Of a DNA stretch of 64,000 nt, positions 22,886-34,669 are shown one piece after another. Positions within the stretch are counted from its first letter, which is position 1. Each line of letters opens with the position of its first letter. Origin of the DNA: Myxococcota bacterium (GTDB lineage: Bacteria > Myxococcota_A > Polyangia > Nannocystales > Nannocystaceae); the NCBI GenBank assembly GCA_039028615.1, contig JBCCHT010000028.1, positions 124,235 to 188,234 of the forward strand, written 5' to 3'. A program made the position numbers and the translations under genes. Under the pieces are notes generated by a model. It ran no database searches and had not been told where the DNA came from. It saw nothing but the letters and a program-made list of their open reading frames with translations.

Positions 22886-23041
22886 TCGTGGTGTTCCCCA
22901 CGAAAGCCGGCACACAACGTTGTCCGGCTGACGCTCTCGACGAGCCGTTGCCGCGATCCCGCACCGGCCGCCACGAGGCCTCACATCGAGGCCCGCAAAC
23001 GCAGATCAGTGCGCGATCATCCCCGTGCTACGGTCCGCGCC

Positions 23042-23761
23042 ATGCGAATCTTGCCCTTTGGTGGCTTTGTTGCACTAACTCTCCTCGTTGGCTGTGGTGA
23101 CGACTCCAGCGGTGACACCGGTGCCGGCAGCACCAGCACGACCGACGCGGTGACCAGCTCCAGCGGCGGCGCCGCGGAGAGCTCCACCGGCTCGGCCGAG
23201 GGCGAATCGACCGCGGCCGACTCGACCGGCAGCGCCGACAGCAGCGGCGGCACAGACTCCACGGGCGAAGGCGCCGAGAGCTCGTCGGGCGTGATGGTCG
23301 ACTTCGGCATGAGCAGCCCCGCGTTCGAGCCCGACGGTCCCTTCCCCGGCACCATGCACGTCGCTGGCGGCAACATGAGCCCCCAGCTCGACTGGGAGGG
23401 CGCCCCCGCCGACACGCAGAGCTTTGGCATCTTCTTCCACGACGAGACCATCTCGTTCAACCACTCGGCGATCTGGAACATCCCGGGCGACGCCGAGGGT
23501 GTGCCCGGGAACATCGAGCTCGAGGCCATGCCCGCCAGCGTCGCCGGGGCCGTGCAGTGCCAGAGCTGGATCGATGAGTTCGGCTACGGCGGCCCCGGCT
23601 CGCCCGCCAACTTCTACGTGTTCACGCTCTACGCCCTCGACATCGACGACCTGAGCGGCGAGATCGACCAGAACTCCTCGCTCGGCCAGGTGCGCACCGC
23701 CCTCGAGAACCACGCGATCGAGTCGGTCACGCTGCGCGGCCAGTCCGCTGGCCCCGGCTGA
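23042..23761 (+). CDS. YbhB/YbcL (PEBP family) lipoprotein
   Basis: Lipobox LLVG|C, Ser/Thr/Gly tether, then SPQLDW, WNIP, GYGGP and YVFTLYALD. Confidence 0.88.
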   Translation: MRILPFGGFVALTLLVGCGDDSSGDTGAGSTSTTDAVTSSSGGAAESSTGSAEGESTAADSTGSADSSGGTDSTGEGAESSSGVMVDFGMSSPAFEPDGPFPGTMHVAGGNMSPQLDWEGAPADTQSFGIFFHDETISFNHSAIWNIPGDAEGVPGNIELEAMPASVAGAVQCQSWIDEFGYGGPGSPANFYVFTLYALDIDDLSGEIDQNSSLGQVRTALENHAIESVTLRGQSAGPG

Positions 23762-23781
23762 TCCTCTTCGTCGAACCCCAT

Positions 23782-23820
23782 AAAAAAAGAGCCGCTCCGA
23801 AGCATCGGAGCGGCTCTTTT
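23782..23820. terminator. bidirectional intrinsic terminator
   Basis: Perfect 16-bp inverted repeat (23785-23800 / 23805-23820) with an A-run on the left and a T-run on the right, between convergent genes. Confidence 0.92.
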
Positions 23821-23842
23821 CGTGGTGCCTACCGGGCGCGGG

Positions 23843-26734
23843 CTAGATGCACGCGCCGACCAGCGGACCCACGCACGCGTTCACCTGAGACAGCGTCGTC
23901 GAGCCGAAGGAGCCCGAGGGGAACACTGCGTCGTTGATGGTGAAGTCGGCCAGCTCCACCCCATCCGAGTCACGGGTGATGGTGATGTCGCTCTGCGTCT
24001 GCGTGTAGTCGATGGTGATGGTGTAGGACTGCCCCTCGACCCAGCCATCGGCCAAGCTGTCGCCCGGCGCGGCGAGCAGCGTGGAGTTGGCGGTGTCGGC
24101 GGGGCAATAGAAGTCCGCCCCGCTCAGCGCGGCGAAGTTCGGCCCCTCGATGCGCTTGACCACCACGCCCTCCGGCGTCGTGCACCCGAAGAAGCTCTGG
24201 GCGCCGTTCTTCCAGGCGAGCGAGTAGTAGTTCGACTCGTCCTGAGCACCCCAGATGAGGCCGACCCAGTCGTCGTCGCCCCCGTCGTTGGTGACCTCGA
24301 CCGTGCCTTGGAGCTGCGTGTCCTCGAACACCACGTCCGAGCACAGGTGCAGGCCGAACTCGTTGTTGCCCAGCTCGCACGCCCGCGATCCGCCCATGTC
24401 GTACGTGATGGTCGCGGACGCTCCCGTACCGCTCGCGCCGTAGTTGGCGGTGAGCAACGTGCAGTTGTTCTGCAGATCGAAGGCCTCGGGCACGACCACC
24501 AGCGCGGTGTCCTGGGCCATGTTGAAGCCGTCGTCCACCGTCACCGTGTAGCTCTGGAAGCCGGCCGGCGACGCCTCGGTCACCGCCATGTTCGGAGCGG
24601 AGAGCGTGCCGTCGTCCGGCGTCCACGCGTAGGTGTAGGGGCCTCCGGTGCCGCCCGAGGCGGTGGCCTGCATCGTCACTGGACCAGCCACGAACTCGGA
24701 GCACGTCGGCGTGGTCTCGACCGAGAGCAGGTCGTTGCAGACCAGCGAACCGGCATCGCAGCCCGCCGACACGCAGTCCCCACCGATGAGGCAAGACTCG
24801 CCCGGATCGCAGGTCATGCCGCAGGCACCACCGCAGTCCAGATCCGTCTCATCGCCGTTTTGCAGGCCGTCATCGCACGCAGGCGGCTCGCACAGGTCGA
24901 GTTCGTTGCAGACCCCGGACTCACAGTCGAGCCCGTTGTCGCAGCCTTCGCCGTCCTCGCAGGGGTCACAGGTCGGGCCGCCGCAATCCACGTCCGTCTC
25001 GGCGCCGTTTTGCACGCCGTCGTCACAGGTCGGTGGCTCGCAGACGTTGCCCGCCGGGTCGCAGACCTCGGACATACAGTCCATGCCCGCCATGCACATC
25101 TCGCCGTCGTTGCAGGGCTGGCAGTCGGGACCGCCACAGTCCACGTCCGTCTCCGCACCGTTTTGGATCCCGTCGTCGCAGGTCGCCTCCTGGCACTCCT
25201 CGTCGAGGCAGACCATCGACTGACAATCGAAGATGGTGATGCAGGCCTCGCCCGTGTCGCAGGGGTCGCAGACCCCTCCGCCACAGTCGACGTCGGTCTC
25301 GAGCCCGTTCATGACCCCGTCGGTACACGACGGATCCTCGCAGACGCCGGCATTGCAGACCTCCGACTCGCAGTCGGCGTCGTCGTTGCACATCTCGCCG
25401 CCATCGCAGGGCAGACAATCGGGGCCGCCGCAATCGACGTCCGTCTCGTTGCCGTTCATCAGACCGTCGTTGCAGGTCGGGTCCTCGCACTCGCCCGCCG
25501 CCGGATCGCAGGTCTCGGACATGCAGTCGCTGTCCATCTCGCAATCTTCACCGTTGTCGCAGCCGTCGCAGTCCGGGCCGCCACAGTCCACGTCCGTCTC
25601 CAGGCCGTTGAGCAGCCCGTCGTCGCAGGTGGCCGGCGTGCACACGCCTGGCACGGGCGGCATGCCCATGCAGATGCCCGACTCGCAATCGGTGGGCTCG
25701 AGGCAGATCTCGGCGTCTTCACAGGGCTGACACTCCGGCCCGCCGCAGTCTACGTCCGTCTCCAGGCCGTTGATTTCACCATCGGCGCAGGTGGGCGGCA
25801 CGCAGTTGCCGTCGTCGCACTCGCTCGACATGCAGTCCGTGTCGACCTCGCAGAGGCCCGGCTCGTCGCACGCCGGGCAGTCGGGGCCGCCGCAGTCTAC
25901 GTCCGTCTCGTTGCCGTTCGGCGTGCCGTCGGTGCACGACGGCTCGTCGCAGGTCCCCGCCGCGGCGTCACACACGAAGTGCACGCAATCGACATGGACC
26001 TCGCAGCCCTCGCCGGGCTCACAGGTCGACCCACAGCTGCCGCCGCAGTCCTGGTCGGTCTCGTCCCCGTTCTGCACGCCGTCGTCGCAGGTCGGCGGCT
26101 CACACATGCCGGTCTCGGCGTTGCAGACCTGCGACTCGCAGTCCTCGGGGCCATCGCAGTCGTCGGCGGGCGGGCACGGGTCACACGAGCCGCCGCAATC
26201 CACGTCGGTCTCGTCCCCGTTTTGTATCCCGTCGTCACACGAGGATCCGTCGCAGGTACCGTCGTCGTTGCACTGCCCAGACTGGCAGTCTTCGCCGTCC
26301 TGACACCCGTCTCCGTCCGGGCATGGTTCACACGAGCCGCCGCAGTCCACGTCGGTCTCGTCCCCGTTTTCGAACCCGTCGGTGCACGTCGGGTCGGTGC
26401 AGGTCATGCCGTCGCCGCACCACTCGGTCTGGCAGTCCTCGTTGCTCTCGCACCCCTGGCCGCTGCCGCACTGCTCGTCGCACGAGCCGCCGCAGTCCAC
26501 GTCGGTCTCGTCCCCGTCTTGGACGCCGTTGGAGCAGCTGCCCCCGCCCCCGGAGGAGTCGGCCGCCGTATCGGCCGCGGTGGCGCCGTCGTCGTCCGTG
26601 CCCCCGCCCGTGACGACGGGGCACCCCGCATCCGCGGTCTGCAGCAGGCCGTCGTCGAAGCAGTTGTTGGCACAACCCGGCAAGAAGATCAGGCCGAAGG
26701 TCCCGGCCGCTATGGTCAATGTCTTGGTGTTCAT
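23843..26734 (-). CDS. surface lipoprotein: 12 Cys-rich ETDVDCGG repeats, PKD/Ig-like module, thrombospondin C-terminal-like domain
   Basis: Lipobox FLPG|C; 12 repeats counted; SGGTGGPYTYAW...YTVTVDD Ig-like segment; C-terminal DDDWVGLIWGAQDESNYYSLAWK...GW...SQ. Confidence 0.85.
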   Translation of the reverse strand: MNTKTLTIAAGTFGLIFLPGCANNCFDDGLLQTADAGCPVVTGGGTDDDGATAADTAADSSGGGGSCSNGVQDGDETDVDCGGSCDEQCGSGQGCESNEDCQTEWCGDGMTCTDPTCTDGFENGDETDVDCGGSCEPCPDGDGCQDGEDCQSGQCNDDGTCDGSSCDDGIQNGDETDVDCGGSCDPCPPADDCDGPEDCESQVCNAETGMCEPPTCDDGVQNGDETDQDCGGSCGSTCEPGEGCEVHVDCVHFVCDAAAGTCDEPSCTDGTPNGNETDVDCGGPDCPACDEPGLCEVDTDCMSSECDDGNCVPPTCADGEINGLETDVDCGGPECQPCEDAEICLEPTDCESGICMGMPPVPGVCTPATCDDGLLNGLETDVDCGGPDCDGCDNGEDCEMDSDCMSETCDPAAGECEDPTCNDGLMNGNETDVDCGGPDCLPCDGGEMCNDDADCESEVCNAGVCEDPSCTDGVMNGLETDVDCGGGVCDPCDTGEACITIFDCQSMVCLDEECQEATCDDGIQNGAETDVDCGGPDCQPCNDGEMCMAGMDCMSEVCDPAGNVCEPPTCDDGVQNGAETDVDCGGPTCDPCEDGEGCDNGLDCESGVCNELDLCEPPACDDGLQNGDETDLDCGGACGMTCDPGESCLIGGDCVSAGCDAGSLVCNDLLSVETTPTCSEFVAGPVTMQATASGGTGGPYTYAWTPDDGTLSAPNMAVTEASPAGFQSYTVTVDDGFNMAQDTALVVVPEAFDLQNNCTLLTANYGASGTGASATITYDMGGSRACELGNNEFGLHLCSDVVFEDTQLQGTVEVTNDGGDDDWVGLIWGAQDESNYYSLAWKNGAQSFFGCTTPEGVVVKRIEGPNFAALSGADFYCPADTANSTLLAAPGDSLADGWVEGQSYTITIDYTQTQSDITITRDSDGVELADFTINDAVFPSGSFGSTTLSQVNACVGPLVGACI
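24737..26539 (-). repeat. 12 x ~150-bp coding repeat (CxDGxxNGxETDVDCGGxxC..., 8 Cys per unit)
   Basis: Counted directly in the translation. Confidence 0.95.
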
Positions 26735-26751
26735 CTCGTCCCCCCCAGTCC

Positions 26752-28215
26752 TCAACGCTCGAGCAACTTGAACTCGATGCGGCGGTTCTTGGCCCGCCCC
26801 TTCTTGGACTTGTTGCTCTGCCTCGGCTCCGTCTCACCGGCCCCACGCGTCTTGAATCGAGACGCCTCGAGCCCTGCCGCCACGAAGTAGTCGCGCACCG
26901 CGTTCGCGCGATCCTCGGACAGCTGGCGGTTGTACTCGTCGTTGCCGCGATCGTCGGTGTGCCCGACGATCTCGAGCCGCACGTTCGGGTACTCGGCCAG
27001 CACCTTCACGGCGCGATCCAGCAGCGGCTGCGACTTCTTGCGAATCGTCGCCTTGGCAGTGTCGAAGTAGATGCCCTCGATGACCCCGCTGAACTTCTCG
27101 ACCGCCTTGGGCACCTCGTCCGGGCAGCCGTCTTCGTCGTCGAAGCCGTTGCTCGTCTCCGGCTCCTCGACGCACTCGTCGTCCGGATCCAAGATCCCGT
27201 CCCCGTCCGTATCGGGAATCGGGCAGCCGTTGTAGGCCTCGACGCCCGGCACATCCACGCACTCGTCGTCCGGATCCAAGATCCCGTCCCCGTCCGTGTC
27301 GGGAACGGGGCAGCCCTCGAACTCCTCCACGCCCGGCACGTCGACGCACTTGTCGTCGGGATCCAGGATCCCGTCTCCGTCCGTGTCGGGGATGGGGCAG
27401 CCGTCGTACTCCGGTACGCCCGGCGTCTCGACGCACTCGTCGTCTGGATCCAAGATCCCGTCCCCGTCCGTATCCAGCGGGCCCTTCTTCGGCTCCGCGT
27501 TCTTGCGGCCGAGCACCAGGCTCAGGCCCAGCAGGACCTCGGGCGAGTGCACCACGCTCTCGCCCACGCCCCGCCGCGCCGTCATGTTGTCGCGCACGTC
27601 CAGACGCAGCGACGAGTAGCGGCTCATGTAGATCTTCAGGCCACCACCGAAGTGAAAGCCCAGGTCGATGTCGTTGCCGACCGCGTCGCGCTCACTGGCC
27701 ACCCCCAGTCCCGACGCGCCCGCGAGCACGAACGGCGTCACGCTCCACTTGGGGAGCTGCAAGATGACGTGACCCCGCGCGCCGTAGACCAGCGCGTTCT
27801 GGCCACCTTGGGTCTGCGTGGGCAGGACCGCGCCTTCGGCCTCGAGCCCGAGAATCCGCAAGACGTTGTATCCGACCCGTAGACCGCCCTCTGGGGCCCA
27901 CGAGCGCAGGGGCTGAAAGCCCTGGTCGACCAGCGTCAGGTCCGATTCGAATAGCTCGACGCGAGAGTGCGGAAACAAGACGCCGCCGAAGACACCCAGC
28001 TCCCAGGTGTTGCGCTCGGGCGCCCAGCGATGGATCCACTTCTGATCCTTGCGCTTGTTCTTCTTGGCGCGCTTCTTCTTCTTCTTCTCACCCCCGTCGG
28101 CCTCCGCCGAACCGGTGGCTTCGGTGGAATCACCACCGACCGAAATCTCTCCTGCTGCACCCGCGCCTGGCCCCGCCAGGGCCAGGGCTGAACCAACGAT
28201 CCAACTGATCCCCAT
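26752..28215 (-). CDS. OmpA-family outer membrane protein with thrombospondin type-3 repeats (TraB-like architecture)
   Basis: Signal peptide, amphipathic beta-barrel-like region, 4 x DTDGDGILDPDDxC...GCP, and an OmpA C-domain (GHTDDRG, LSEDRA, NRRIEF). Confidence 0.92.
   Translation of the reverse strand: MGISWIVGSALALAGPGAGAAGEISVGGDSTEATGSAEADGGEKKKKKRAKKNKRKDQKWIHRWAPERNTWELGVFGGVLFPHSRVELFESDLTLVDQGFQPLRSWAPEGGLRVGYNVLRILGLEAEGAVLPTQTQGGQNALVYGARGHVILQLPKWSVTPFVLAGASGLGVASERDAVGNDIDLGFHFGGGLKIYMSRYSSLRLDVRDNMTARRGVGESVVHSPEVLLGLSLVLGRKNAEPKKGPLDTDGDGILDPDDECVETPGVPEYDGCPIPDTDGDGILDPDDKCVDVPGVEEFEGCPVPDTDGDGILDPDDECVDVPGVEAYNGCPIPDTDGDGILDPDDECVEEPETSNGFDDEDGCPDEVPKAVEKFSGVIEGIYFDTAKATIRKKSQPLLDRAVKVLAEYPNVRLEIVGHTDDRGNDEYNRQLSEDRANAVRDYFVAAGLEASRFKTRGAGETEPRQSNKSKKGRAKNRRIEFKLLER
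27118..27474 (-). repeat. 4 x 87-bp thrombospondin type-3-like repeats
   Basis: DTDGDGILDPDD recurs every 29 aa. Confidence 0.92.
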
Positions 28216-28366
28216 CGACAATGTCCCTCCGCCGTGTGTGTTCAGCAAGAGTCGTTCCAACCGGCCGGTCGGCGGAGAACGAGATTCGCTCAGTGTTCCA
28301 TCACACGTGCCAACGCCGTGGGCGGGGCATTGCGCCCCGCCGCGGCTTTTTACTAGGGACGGTGGC

Positions 28367-29671
28367 TCAGGCCCAGGTGCGCGAGGCGTGGAGGGCCAGG
28401 CCGGAGGCGATCGACATCAGCTCGTCACCCCCTCGCAGCTTGTCCGCCCCGAAGCGCGTCTCGAACTCGCGGCGAACGACGGGGACGAATGCGGTCCCGC
28501 CCGTCATGAACACACGATCGACCTCCGCCGCGGTCACGCCCGCTTTGGCCAGGGTGTCGTCGAGGGCCCCCGCGATGCGAGCGACATGGTCGGCGATCCA
28601 CGCCTCGAACTGGCTGCGCTCCACGGGCGCCTCCACCTTCACCGGGCCGTCCTCGTAGTGAAAGGTGCCCTCGGCCGCGGACGACAGCGAGATCTTGAGG
28701 CGCTCGACCGCCTTGTGCAGGTGAAAGCCCTGGTTGTTGTCGATGACGTGGATGAGCGCGCCGATGGCCTCTGGCTGGCGCGCGAAACGATGCAGCCGGT
28801 CGAGCTCGGCTCGGGTGCGCTTGCCTTTGAGAAACGACAGATGATGCCAGCGGGAGAGCTTGTAGTAGTACGAGTTGGGGATGGCCAGCTCTCGGCCCAT
28901 CTCCACGTAGGTCGAGCCGCGCCCCAGCTGCGGGCAGACCAGGTGCTCGATGATGGCGGCATCCAGGTCGTCGCCCGCCACCGCCACGCCACCGGTCGCA
29001 ACGATGTCTCCCACGCGCTCGGTCTGCTGGTGGCGCTGCGGGCCCAGTCGCATCAGGCAAAAATCGCTGGTACCACCGCCGAAGTCGGCCACCAGCGCCA
29101 GTTCGGGCGCCTCGAGGGTTTTTTCGTAGTGATACGCGGCCGCGATGGGCTCGAGTTCGAAGAGCACCTCCTCGAACCCGGCCTTGGTCGCCGCGGTGGC
29201 CAGGCGCTGCTGGGCTTCCTCGTTGGCCTCGTCGGTGTCGGCACCCGCGAAGCACACCGGGCGCCCCAGCATCGCGTGCCGAACCTCGACGCCCCGCTGC
29301 TCGCTCAGGCACTGCCGTAGCCGGAAGAAGAACAGGGTCAGCATGTCGTCGAGGGTGACGCCGTGGTGACCTATCTGCGTGCGCCCCAGCGACAAAGTGG
29401 TGAGGTGCGTCTTGAACGACTGCACCAGCCGCCCCTCCCCCATCGCCTCGAGGTAGGCCTCGATGGCCCCCACCCCGGCGTGGAATTGGATGGGCAGCCG
29501 GACCTCCTGCTCGTCGGGATCGAAAAAGAGCAGGGTCCGGTAGCTCTGGGTCAGCGCGCCCAGCAGGGTGAACTCCAAGAAGCTCACCTGCCCGGTCGCG
29601 TCCGCCAGCGCGAGCGCGGAGTTGGAGGTGCCGAAGTCGATACCGACGCAAGGAGTGCGGGGCTGCCCCAT
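28367..29671 (-). CDS. Hsp70-family protein (YegD-like)
   Basis: GIDFGTSNS, GRPV, EPIAAA, DFGGGTSDF and MTGG motifs; no DnaK substrate-binding domain. Confidence 0.9.
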   Translation of the reverse strand: MGQPRTPCVGIDFGTSNSALALADATGQVSFLEFTLLGALTQSYRTLLFFDPDEQEVRLPIQFHAGVGAIEAYLEAMGEGRLVQSFKTHLTTLSLGRTQIGHHGVTLDDMLTLFFFRLRQCLSEQRGVEVRHAMLGRPVCFAGADTDEANEEAQQRLATAATKAGFEEVLFELEPIAAAYHYEKTLEAPELALVADFGGGTSDFCLMRLGPQRHQQTERVGDIVATGGVAVAGDDLDAAIIEHLVCPQLGRGSTYVEMGRELAIPNSYYYKLSRWHHLSFLKGKRTRAELDRLHRFARQPEAIGALIHVIDNNQGFHLHKAVERLKISLSSAAEGTFHYEDGPVKVEAPVERSQFEAWIADHVARIAGALDDTLAKAGVTAAEVDRVFMTGGTAFVPVVRREFETRFGADKLRGGDELMSIASGLALHASRTWA

Positions 29672-29772
29672 GAAGCGACACAGACTACACGGGGTTGGGC
29701 GAGAGTCCAGGCGCAACGAGGGCCCGACCGAAGTCGAGCCCTGCGAGCGAGCTCAATCGGTACGAGGGCGAC

Positions 29773-30261
29773 TCAGATGCACTGCGCCGCGCAGCCAGCC
29801 GAGCACATGACCAGCATGGTGATCAGCTCGTTTTCGGCGGCGTCGCACTCCGTCGTGCAGGCCTCGACCCCGGCCACGCCGGGCATCGTCTCGACGCAGG
29901 CCTGGAAGCACTGACACTCGCCGGACTCGTCGGCGTCGCAGGCCTCGAGCTGCGGGCAGCAGCTCTCCTTGACGCAGGTCGCACACTCGTCGTCCGAGGC
30001 CTCGGGGTCACAGGCGCCCGCCGCCTCGGTGTCGTTGGCGGTCTCGTCGCCCGGGTCGGTGGTGGCGACGTCGGTGGTCGCCGCGTCGGTGGTCGCCTCG
30101 GTCGTGGCCGACTCCGTGGTGGCGGCCTCGGTAGCCCCGGCTTCCGTGGTCGCGGCCTCGGTGGTCGCGTTGCCGTCGGAGTCCCCCGTGCTGCTGTCGT
30201 CACCGCAGGCGGTGGTCGCGAGAAGGAGGCCGAGCGTGAAGGTCGAGACGAGTCGTTTCAT
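29773..30261 (-). CDS. small lipoprotein with Thr/Ala/Glu tether and Cys-rich C-terminal domain
   Basis: LATTA|CGDD lipobox; 15-bp TTEAA-type repeats; CxxCxxxxCC...CxC tail. Confidence 0.85.
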   Translation of the reverse strand: MKRLVSTFTLGLLLATTACGDDSSTGDSDGNATTEAATTEAGATEAATTESATTEATTDAATTDVATTDPGDETANDTEAAGACDPEASDDECATCVKESCCPQLEACDADESGECQCFQACVETMPGVAGVEACTTECDAAENELITMLVMCSAGCAAQCI

Positions 30262-30482
30262 GAAAGCGCGTTCCGTAGTCGAGGCGCGGGATGGTGCCAC
30301 GGAGCCGGAAGTCACAGCAATGCCGGCTCGGGCCCCGCTGCGGCCCATGTCACGGCCCCGCGCAAACTCTCGCGCACCGTTTTGATTCAATCGTTGGGAA
30401 CGCCGGGTTTTGGGGCCAGCCGATGTGGTATCGCAAACCCAGCGTGTTCTCCCTGCCCGGATCGATGGCGCGACTCGCCGCC

Positions 30483-32475: not shown

Positions 32476-33393
32476 CTACCGCACGCAGACGTCGTCTTCG
32501 AAGCTCCCGCACGCACACTCGGCGACCGGGAAGAACACGCCCGAGTCGTGGTCGCACCACTGACACTGGCCCCCGCCCGGGCTGCGGCAGGTCGCGCAGT
32601 CGATGCAGTGGAAGCTGCCGAAGTTCGTCGCGTCGGCGCTGGCCGAGTTGCCGCAGTACGCGGTCCAGCAACCCGTGGTCGGGTTGAGCCCGGTCGCGTC
32701 GCACTGGTGCGGCACCCCCACCGGGACCTCGCAGCCGTTGGCCGCGTTGCCGTCGCAGTCCTCCCACGGGGCCTGGCACTGAATCTGGCAGCTGCCGCTC
32801 ACGCACGCGCCGTCGGCATGGTCGGCGCCCGCACAGGTATCCCCGCAGGCGGAGCAGTTGGAGTTGCTGCCCAGCGTGACCTCGCAGCCGTCGCTCATGT
32901 CGCCGTTGCAGTCCTCGAAACCGTCGAGGCACTCCATGCCCGTGCAGGCTCCGTCGACGCAGGTGCCGGGCTCGGTGTTGTCCGCGGTGCACTCGAGCGG
33001 GGTGCCGACGCAGACCCCGGCGCCGTCGCAGGCGTCGACGTCCGTGCACGGATCGCCGTCGTTGCAGCTCGACCCGGCCATCGACGGGAAGTGCTGGCAC
33101 ATGCCCGCTTGGCAGATGCCTTGCTGCTCGAGGCAGAAGCCCGGCGGCAGCATGCAGTCGGCGTCCGCCTGGCACGTGCCCAGATCGGGCAGCATGGGCG
33201 GACCGTCGTCCGAGCCCTCGCCGGACCCGTCCGCCGGACCATCGCTGGTCAACGGCGGGTTGGTGGACGTGGTGGTGGTGGAGGTCATGGCCTCCCCCGA
33301 GGAGCCCAAGCCCTCGAACGCGGGACCGGTCAGGTCGGGGTCGTCTCCGGTCGCGCAGCCCCCCAGACCCCCGACCAGCAGCAACGCCGCCAT
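32476..33393 (-). CDS. Cys-rich repeat lipoprotein
   Basis: LGG|C lipobox, tether, then CNDGDPCTDVDAC and DCNG...DGCE repeats. Start may lie slightly upstream. Confidence 0.8.
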   Translation of the reverse strand: MAALLLVGGLGGCATGDDPDLTGPAFEGLGSSGEAMTSTTTTSTNPPLTSDGPADGSGEGSDDGPPMLPDLGTCQADADCMLPPGFCLEQQGICQAGMCQHFPSMAGSSCNDGDPCTDVDACDGAGVCVGTPLECTADNTEPGTCVDGACTGMECLDGFEDCNGDMSDGCEVTLGSNSNCSACGDTCAGADHADGACVSGSCQIQCQAPWEDCDGNAANGCEVPVGVPHQCDATGLNPTTGCWTAYCGNSASADATNFGSFHCIDCATCRSPGGGQCQWCDHDSGVFFPVAECACGSFEDDVCVR

Positions 33394-33482
33394 CGCTCCT
33401 CGTGCTCCTGCCGTGCGTCCCACCTCCACGGAGCCATGGTACCGCAAACCCATCGGCACGGTGACGTATCCTGCCGTCGACG

Positions 33483-34264: not shown

Positions 34265-34669
<405 letters not shown>

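Follow-up and report, generated by a model that had tools for sequence, protein, structure and literature searches.

Two adjoining genes in a 64,000-nucleotide stretch of a Nannocystaceae (Myxococcota) genome (GCA_039028615.1, contig JBCCHT010000028.1, positions 124,235 to 188,234; hereafter the window) raise the question of what keeps the gene of a lipoprotein with a thrombospondin-like tip (gene 2) beside that of an outer-membrane barrel protein with a peptidoglycan-binding domain (gene 1). A preliminary description had proposed a split thrombospondin, in which type-3 repeats encoded by gene 1 complete the thrombospondin C-terminal domain (TSP_C) encoded by gene 2, and had likened the pair to TraAB of Myxococcus. 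We found that linkage to the barrel follows a short Cys/DDG tag at the N-terminus of the gene 2 product, not the tip; the preliminary description had missed this element, which explains the linkage. The genes and the tag are placed as follows.

26752..28215, minus strand: gene 1, intact open reading frame (ORF), 487 aa counted from the ATG at 28215; signal peptide, charged spacer, 8-stranded barrel, four type-3 repeats, OmpA domain
23843..26734, minus strand: gene 2, intact ORF, 963 aa
26618..26674, minus strand: N-terminal tag of gene 2, residues 21-39 (Cys21, x3-C-x-D-D-G-L-x-Q, further Cys38)

The tag was first read in the source genome, where four lipoproteins adjoining barrel paralogues have the same start, and where three more tagged genes have no adjoining barrel. 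Its consensus is the lipobox C(+1)-x3-C-x-D-D-G-(L/F/V), with a further Cys about ten residues later. Across 32 barrel-linked proteins the lipobox Cys (C1), C5, D7, D8 and G9 never vary and 30 keep the last Cys, while the linker after the tag is unconserved. In gene 2 the lipobox reads LPGC (identified by eye), the product is predicted to be a lipoprotein lipidated at Cys21, and a putative Cys25-Cys38 disulfide would close a docking loop in the tag.

A tag profile built from 19 N-termini gave 264 matches in 65 of the 73 Nannocystaceae genomes. With 28 candidates scored per genome, a depth at which weak relatives may be missed, the tag was present in 28 of 35 family genomes, against two marginal matches in 215 other genomes of the class. 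A library of 1.84 billion proteins returned 38 representatives, 37 of them with the match at the N-terminus and the 38th an unrelated animal complement-control protein. The tag is carried by 39 of 45 close homologues of the TSP_C-tip protein; it corresponds to no Pfam or NCBIfam family, and nothing scored above 0.83 in an Atlas search.

We then investigated the linkage of tag and barrel. Among 20 evaluable TSP_C-tip genes, 11 of the 15 tagged ones lie beside a barrel gene, versus none of the five untagged ones (Fisher p 0.008); these genes are kin rather than independent, the fragment L034 was dropped, L041 was read through a frameshift, the linkage of L023 rests on the 3' end of a barrel gene at a contig edge, and L039, with a deviant start, was counted as untagged. 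The frameshift in L041 (6077-7835) falls in a six-base repeat at the tag/stalk junction of this barrel-linked TSP_C gene, and is either an assembly error or repeat slippage. When all matches in 16 better assemblies (84 tagged genes, 131 barrels) were considered, 36 of the tagged genes had a barrel at a distance of at most 4 kb, where 0.64 would be expected, and removing the five profile-building rows by hand left 33 of 79. Of the 36 linked lipoprotein genes, 13 lie downstream of the barrel gene, 11 lie upstream, 10 are divergent and 2 are convergent, which makes four arrangements. Similarly, 44 of the best 150 tag matches over the 73 genomes were barrel-linked (0.48 expected). Within 1 kb of a barrel in the source genome, we found four of the seven tagged genes versus six of about 1370 other lipoprotein-like ORFs, the latter called by a crude predictor that over-calls and that missed gene 2 itself. 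Furthermore, the copy numbers of tag and barrel co-vary over the 73 genomes, with a rho of 0.73 that becomes 0.65 once genome size is controlled for and 0.88 when 17 genus means are compared. The uncharacterised pair that had been expected to be linked in relatives is indeed found in conserved barrel-lipoprotein neighbourhoods across Nannocystaceae.

Under the constant tag, stalks and tips are exchanged. Pfam searches revealed TSP_C, VWA, IgGFc-binding and ALK/LTK glycine-rich tips, propeller-like and C-type-lectin-like tips were recognised by eye, and there are at least three stalk types (ETDxDCGG, MopE-like, DUF4215), with stalks of up to about 1300 residues. The closest barrels from another genus (61-65% identity, same gene order) are paired with an IgGFc-binding tip that replaces the Ig-TSP_C part, and in a quick tree gene 1 falls in a group of nine tag-linked barrels, five with TSP_C and four with IgGFc-binding tips (SH-aLRT 87). 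Each of these domains is known or common, and it is the tag, its link to expanded OmpA-type barrels and the modular kit that are apparently undescribed: literature searches, which left subscription papers and supplements outside their scope (gene lists in supplements may matter), found neither the tag, nor the barrel/lipoprotein pair, nor bacterial TSP_C lipoproteins. Tagged genes also occur in tandem or clustered (L068, L074, L128, L091), in L091 flanking one barrel gene. Among the roughly 1370 lipoprotein-like ORFs called by the crude rule in the source genome (G000), CGDD is the commonest start (81).

The remaining parts of the two products are as follows.

27496..28050, minus strand: gene 1 barrel region, residues 56-240 (WIxRWxPERN segment, then eight strands, residues 70-235)
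27121..27474, minus strand: four thrombospondin type-3 (DxDGDG) repeats of gene 1, residues 248-365, predicted periplasmic, matching 5wtl
26782..27069, minus strand: OmpA peptidoglycan-binding domain of gene 1, residues 383-478 (PF00691, E 6e-23, 81 bits)
26537..26617, minus strand: Gly/Ser/Thr/Asp low-complexity linker of gene 2, residues 40-66, unconserved
24731..26536, minus strand: stalk of gene 2, 12 Cys-rich ETDxDCGG repeats at 49-54 aa spacing, residues 67-668
24479..24730, minus strand: PKD/Ig-like module of gene 2, residues 669-752 (weak PKD match, beta-sandwich in the model)
23846..24478, minus strand: tip of gene 2, thrombospondin C-terminal L-type lectin domain (TSP_C), residues 753-963
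24269..24277, minus strand: DDD motif of the tip, D820-D822, the calcium site of animal TSP_C

Gene 1 encodes an OmpA/OprF-type protein. Its previously proposed architecture of barrel, four type-3 repeats and OmpA domain was confirmed by Pfam, motif count (DxDGDG repeats at residues 248, 277, 306 and 335) and an AlphaFold2 model with eight barrel strands (mean pLDDT 91, mostly above 90; 52 homologues in the alignment). The barrel itself matched PF13505 below the cut-off (E 4e-4), and its model superimposed on the OprF barrel 4rlc (Z 17.3, rmsd 1.9, 132 residues aligned) and on OmpA 1bxw (Z 16.9, rmsd 2.6, 154 aligned). Because the barrel has eight strands, the type-3 repeats and the peptidoglycan-binding domain lie on the same side of the membrane, and the type-3 plus OmpA part is 48% identical to 5wtl, the "periplasmic portion" of a Capnocytophaga OmpA (profile E 4.5e-91). 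The position of the repeats after the last barrel strand and this match both support the preliminary caveat that they may be periplasmic, as we predict. The order barrel, type-3 repeats, peptidoglycan-binding domain is that of OmpA/OprF proteins with type-3 repeats (Capnocytophaga gingivalis OmpA 5wtl; Pseudomonas OprF 4rlc, 5u1h). The Nannocystaceae barrels differ from that family in numbering up to 17 gene copies per genome, in a family-specific N-terminal segment (WIxRWxPERN) and a long first loop, and in that about a quarter of the copies adjoin a tagged lipoprotein gene. The lumen of the barrel family is lined by an invariant charged network.

The gene 2 product contains 107 Cys and is very acidic (208 D+E versus 6 K+R), and the anatomy first read for it (lipoprotein, 12-repeat Cys-rich stalk, Ig-like module, tip resembling TSP_C) was borne out. 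The ETDxDCGG repeat, present 4-13 times in gene 2 homologues, is an unnamed spacer common in Myxococcota proteins, where it also accompanies CBM3, ricin-type lectin and fibrinogen-like heads; it matched no Pfam or NCBIfam family and only unnamed clusters in an Atlas search. The PKD match of the next module is weak (Pfam E 0.3). The tip is a genuine thrombospondin C-terminal domain: it exceeded the PF05735 cut-off (30.7 versus 25.6 bits), matched COMP 3fby by sequence (E 3e-5), and in a Foldseek search with a model of the last 395 residues the top four matches were TSP1/TSP2/COMP (E 1e-14 to 7e-14; rmsd 2.5-2.9 over 222-228 columns), with plant lectins far weaker (E 7e-7). We regarded mistletoe lectin matches of the tip (E 0.02 or worse) as fortuitous. 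The DDD motif lines up with its counterpart in COMP and TSP1, and its first and third Asp are invariant in 24 of 24 aligned tips; animal thrombospondins bind calcium through this motif, which also controls their retention in the matrix (PMC6526912). Calcium would be bound both by this motif and by the type-3 repeats of gene 1, on opposite sides of the membrane.

Gene 2 thus shares the fold and DDD motif of the thrombospondin/COMP signature domain (1ux6, 1yo8, 2rhp, 3fby; PMC6526912), whereas in animal thrombospondins EGF-like and type-3 repeats directly precede TSP_C in one chain (PMC6526912). In the gene 2 product, a predicted bacterial lipoprotein, ETDxDCGG repeats and the Ig module stand in that place, and Pfam found no EGF or TSP_3 match. 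Across the phylum, TSP_C occurs in 34 of 301 genomes, and no DxDxDG was found within the 420 residues upstream of it in 20 of 21 readable loci, the remaining one having a single match (9 of the 30 loci gave no motif and were left uncounted). Because most of these upstream regions are without DxDxDG, TSP_C in these bacteria seems to be independent of type-3 repeats. A bacterial TSP_C with the DDD calcium motif and without type-3 repeats is thereby documented, whereas in the parts of PMC6792448 and PMC6526912 consulted the origin of TSP_C is placed among eukaryotes only. DDD-type TSP_C was also observed in large proteins of many Myxococcota families (L172-L201), which bears on the origin of the animal domain; judged by eye, some of these have TSP_C at the N-terminus after one DUF4215-like repeat, and others after a VWD-like region.

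We compared the pair with the known myxobacterial systems. Gene 1 scored 142.5 bits against the TraB model NF033763 (cut-off 700), matching model positions 320-497 only (type-3 repeats and OmpA domain). Two TraB genes beside TIGR04566 matches encode N-terminal regions of 288-291 aa, compared with about 185 aa for the gene 1 barrel, and these regions gave an HHalign probability of 0.2% and no hmmsearch match against the 185-column barrel profile. The identification of gene 1 as TraB was therefore ruled out by score and by the absence of detectable barrel similarity, and at most a very remote relation could connect the two barrels. Gene 2 had no NCBIfam match, including to the TraA variable domain and MYXO-CTERM, and ends in TSP_C. 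As an analogy, the TraAB comparison is fair, since in Myxococcus xanthus the gene of a barrel/type-3/OmpA protein likewise adjoins that of a Cys-rich stalked surface protein (PMC3325183, PMC6372800, PMC12045341). The pair differs from TraAB in the N-terminal lipoprotein anchor of gene 2 in place of MYXO-CTERM, in having no PA14 variable domain, and in its many paralogous versions with unrelated tips and four gene arrangements, traAB being a single locus. CglB, a surface lipoprotein adhesin with a VWA tip like that of some tagged proteins, is retained by the outer-membrane barrels GltA/B/H (PMC9946355), within a motor-coupled heteromer for gliding; in the present system the barrel is single and itself carries a wall-binding domain, motor genes are absent from the neighbourhood, and one tag is common to many lipoproteins.

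That a short, invariant motif close to the lipid retains its barrel-gene neighbour despite rearrangement and tip exchange is most simply explained if the motif is the binding site for that barrel. We give roughly even odds to the reading in which gene 2 encodes a surface adhesin whose tag docks on the gene 1 barrel, the OmpA domain of which ties the adhesin to the cell wall. The lipoprotein would sit at the cell surface, lipid-anchored by Cys21, with its disulfide-closed DDG loop contacting the outer loops of the barrel, while the periplasmic OmpA domain would grip peptidoglycan. The long acidic stalk could then present a Ca2+-dependent tip, presumably adhesive or lectin-like, without shedding or extraction from the membrane, and tagged lipoproteins with no barrel gene nearby (48 of 84) would rely on one of the several barrels that each genome encodes at other loci. 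The arrangement would serve retention and load-bearing for interchangeable surface sensors or adhesins, with no thrombospondin-like unit. Precedents are the membrane-proximal head of TraA placed on the TraB barrel by AlphaFold (PMC12045341), for docking, and CglB held at the surface by GltA/B/H (PMC9946355), for retention.

Several observations weigh against docking on the barrel. No partner lies within 4 kb of 48 of the 84 tagged genes and 96 of the 131 barrels in the 16 assemblies, and neither 23 of 26 further tagged loci nor 20 sampled unlinked barrels had any other consistent partner. In two syntenic loci of the same genus (L028 and L032), the barrel gene before the tagged TSP_C gene is cleanly absent from one. 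The genomes are related, so that the statistics overstate independence; on the quick tree the linked label needs 11 changes, of which well-supported branches force only 2. Conserved family-specific barrel residues lie on both faces, and a basic cluster (R63, R68, R120, R199, R237) is on the predicted periplasmic side, so that docking could take place on either face. Tag-linked barrels differ only modestly in their residues from unlinked ones, and these weak differences are confounded by kinship.

The split thrombospondin, in which the type-3 repeats of gene 1 would pack in trans on the TSP_C of gene 2 as one Ca2+-dependent unit, has been largely refuted and retains hardly any probability. Although both halves are true homologues of animal domains and their genes stand side by side, topology and the 5wtl match both place the repeats in the periplasm, about 730 residues separate the tip from its anchor, barrels with four repeats also occur with IgGFc-binding, propeller-like or other tips or alone, untagged TSP_C genes are unlinked to barrels (0 of 5), and phylum TSP_C loci are almost devoid of upstream DxDxDG. 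It is also very improbable that the pair substitutes for TraAB through homotypic recognition of tips on different cells and subsequent outer-membrane exchange. The layout is the same, a wall-anchored barrel with a Cys-rich stalk and tip, and Nannocystaceae appear to be without TraAB: the TraA N-terminal model TIGR04566 exceeded its cut-off in none of the 73 family genomes (two of 301 phylum genomes as control), and the traAB species table of PMC6372800 contains no Nannocystaceae genus. Between five homologue pairs, however, the tip (56-71% identity) is no more variable than the last repeats (59-68%) or the OmpA domain (62-71%), which disfavours a TraA-like identity role; the many pairs per genome with unrelated tips, where traAB is a single locus, and a barrel without similarity to that of TraB speak against it as well.

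We consider it unlikely, if worth attention, that the tag serves as a signal for export or sorting that is read once by the barrel, or by a co-acting factor such as Bam during barrel insertion, with no lasting complex. Its confinement to the lipid-proximal N-terminus (37 of 38 library matches) and the excess of orphan over linked genes, as for cargo and translocon, would suit such a signal, as would the resemblance to the Bacteroidetes surface-export signal, with acidic residues right after the lipid Cys (PMC5080379); the tag differs from that signal in two more conserved Cys, an invariant DDG at +7 to +9, no K/QA prefix and linkage to a barrel family. An acidic pair within +2 to +9 of the Cys, reminiscent of the same signal, is nevertheless common among source-genome lipoprotein-like ORFs (423 of 1374) without barrel linkage. 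The lumen of an OmpA-type eight-stranded barrel, here with an invariant charged network, is too narrow to pass a polypeptide chain, and many paralogous barrels per genome suit stoichiometric partners better than a catalyst. CglB, moreover, reaches the surface without its barrels (PMC9946355). Mere co-location or co-regulation, with an ancestral neighbourhood duplicated often and a tag serving folding, metal binding or self-association, is distinctly unlikely: most members of both families are unlinked, kin share gene order, and in downstream or divergent layouts the tag lies next to the barrel gene, so that 3' tip swaps would spare it by position alone, but linkage survives in all four arrangements, including 11 with the lipoprotein upstream, across several barrel groups, and copy numbers co-vary beyond genome size. 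We also regard as improbable an inner-leaflet lipoprotein whose acidic tag binds a basic periplasmic barrel face, forming an envelope spacer or sensor in the periplasm. Most outer-membrane lipoproteins do face inward, and the family-specific basic residues and WIxRWxPERN are on the predicted periplasmic side; the tips (TSP_C, VWA, IgGFc-binding, ALK/LTK glycine-rich, C-type-lectin-like), however, are binding domains of a typically extracellular kind, and a periplasm of 30-38 nm (PMC12045341) leaves little room for stalks of up to about 1300 residues.

Returning to the docked surface adhesin, its generalisation is more tentative and falls somewhat short of an even chance: the Cys(+1)-x3-C-x-D-D-G loop would be a new docking or sorting tag for expanded wall-anchored barrels, forming in the TraAB-less Nannocystaceae a plug-and-play platform that displays TSP_C, VWA, IgGFc-binding, ALK/LTK glycine-rich and C-type lectin domains, all familiar chiefly from extracellular proteins of animals, on stalks of adjustable length. 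The export and retention of Gram-negative surface lipoproteins are described as largely open (PMC9946355), and a 19-residue tag on hundreds of lipoproteins, together with one small barrel family, makes the question testable with a peptide and a barrel. If true, this would be a third myxobacterial way, beside TraAB and GltABH-CglB, of linking adhesins with the wall across an outer membrane that is fluid.

The barrel family itself is expanded in Nannocystaceae, the lineage in which the tag has multiplied too. The barrel profile gave 455 matches in 70 of the 73 family genomes, and gene 1 is one of 12-13 paralogues in the source genome. Barrels were found in 47 of the 301 phylum genomes, mostly in one or two copies per positive genome outside Nannocystaceae, and at none of 26 outside-family barrels did the surrounding 1.5 kb or so contain a tag match. 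In one source-genome locus (L048, G000:C40:63448-67133), the gene that follows a barrel paralogue encodes an untagged lipoprotein in which DUF4215 repeats are combined with a PA14 domain, the TraA tip class. The N-terminus of this lipoprotein, which resembles that of P0038, gave two marginal matches in 72 other genomes and no family, and was dropped as a candidate second motif. Elsewhere (L049, G000:C7:89527-95662; L108), a LysM-FecR protein carries the same barrel at its end, directly upstream of a barrel/type-3/OmpA gene; a third barrel gene is convergent, and this trio is kept in G004. A signalling use of the barrel is possible.

Two intergenic features of the locus are as follows.

26735..26751, minus strand: intergenic gap between gene 1 and gene 2, 17 bp, with a purine-rich, ribosome-binding-like stretch
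23781..23821, no strand: hairpin past the end of gene 2, with A and T runs on its flanks, called by folding energy

Both the 17-bp gap and the strong terminator of the preliminary description are present, the latter as a hairpin of -42.2 kcal/mol (z -4.65) that none of 200 shuffles equalled; a terminator pattern scanner did not list it. It is probably a bidirectional terminator shared by gene 2 and a convergent gene at window positions 23009-23761 (plus strand), which is lipoprotein-like with a PEBP/YbhB domain (PF01161, E 2e-16). A pattern scan found no sigma-70-type promoter. An Hsp70-family gene (28367-29716, minus strand; PF00012), oriented like gene 1 and lying upstream of it, was not seen at homologous pairs whose flanks were read, and a terminator-like hairpin stands between the two near 28321-28345. 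Two more Cys-rich lipoprotein-like ORFs with Ser/Thr linkers (32476-33459 and 29773-30390, both minus strand) had no Pfam match. Further along the window, at 34272-34658 on the minus strand, we observed a bacterial class A RNase P RNA (RF00010, 225 bits).

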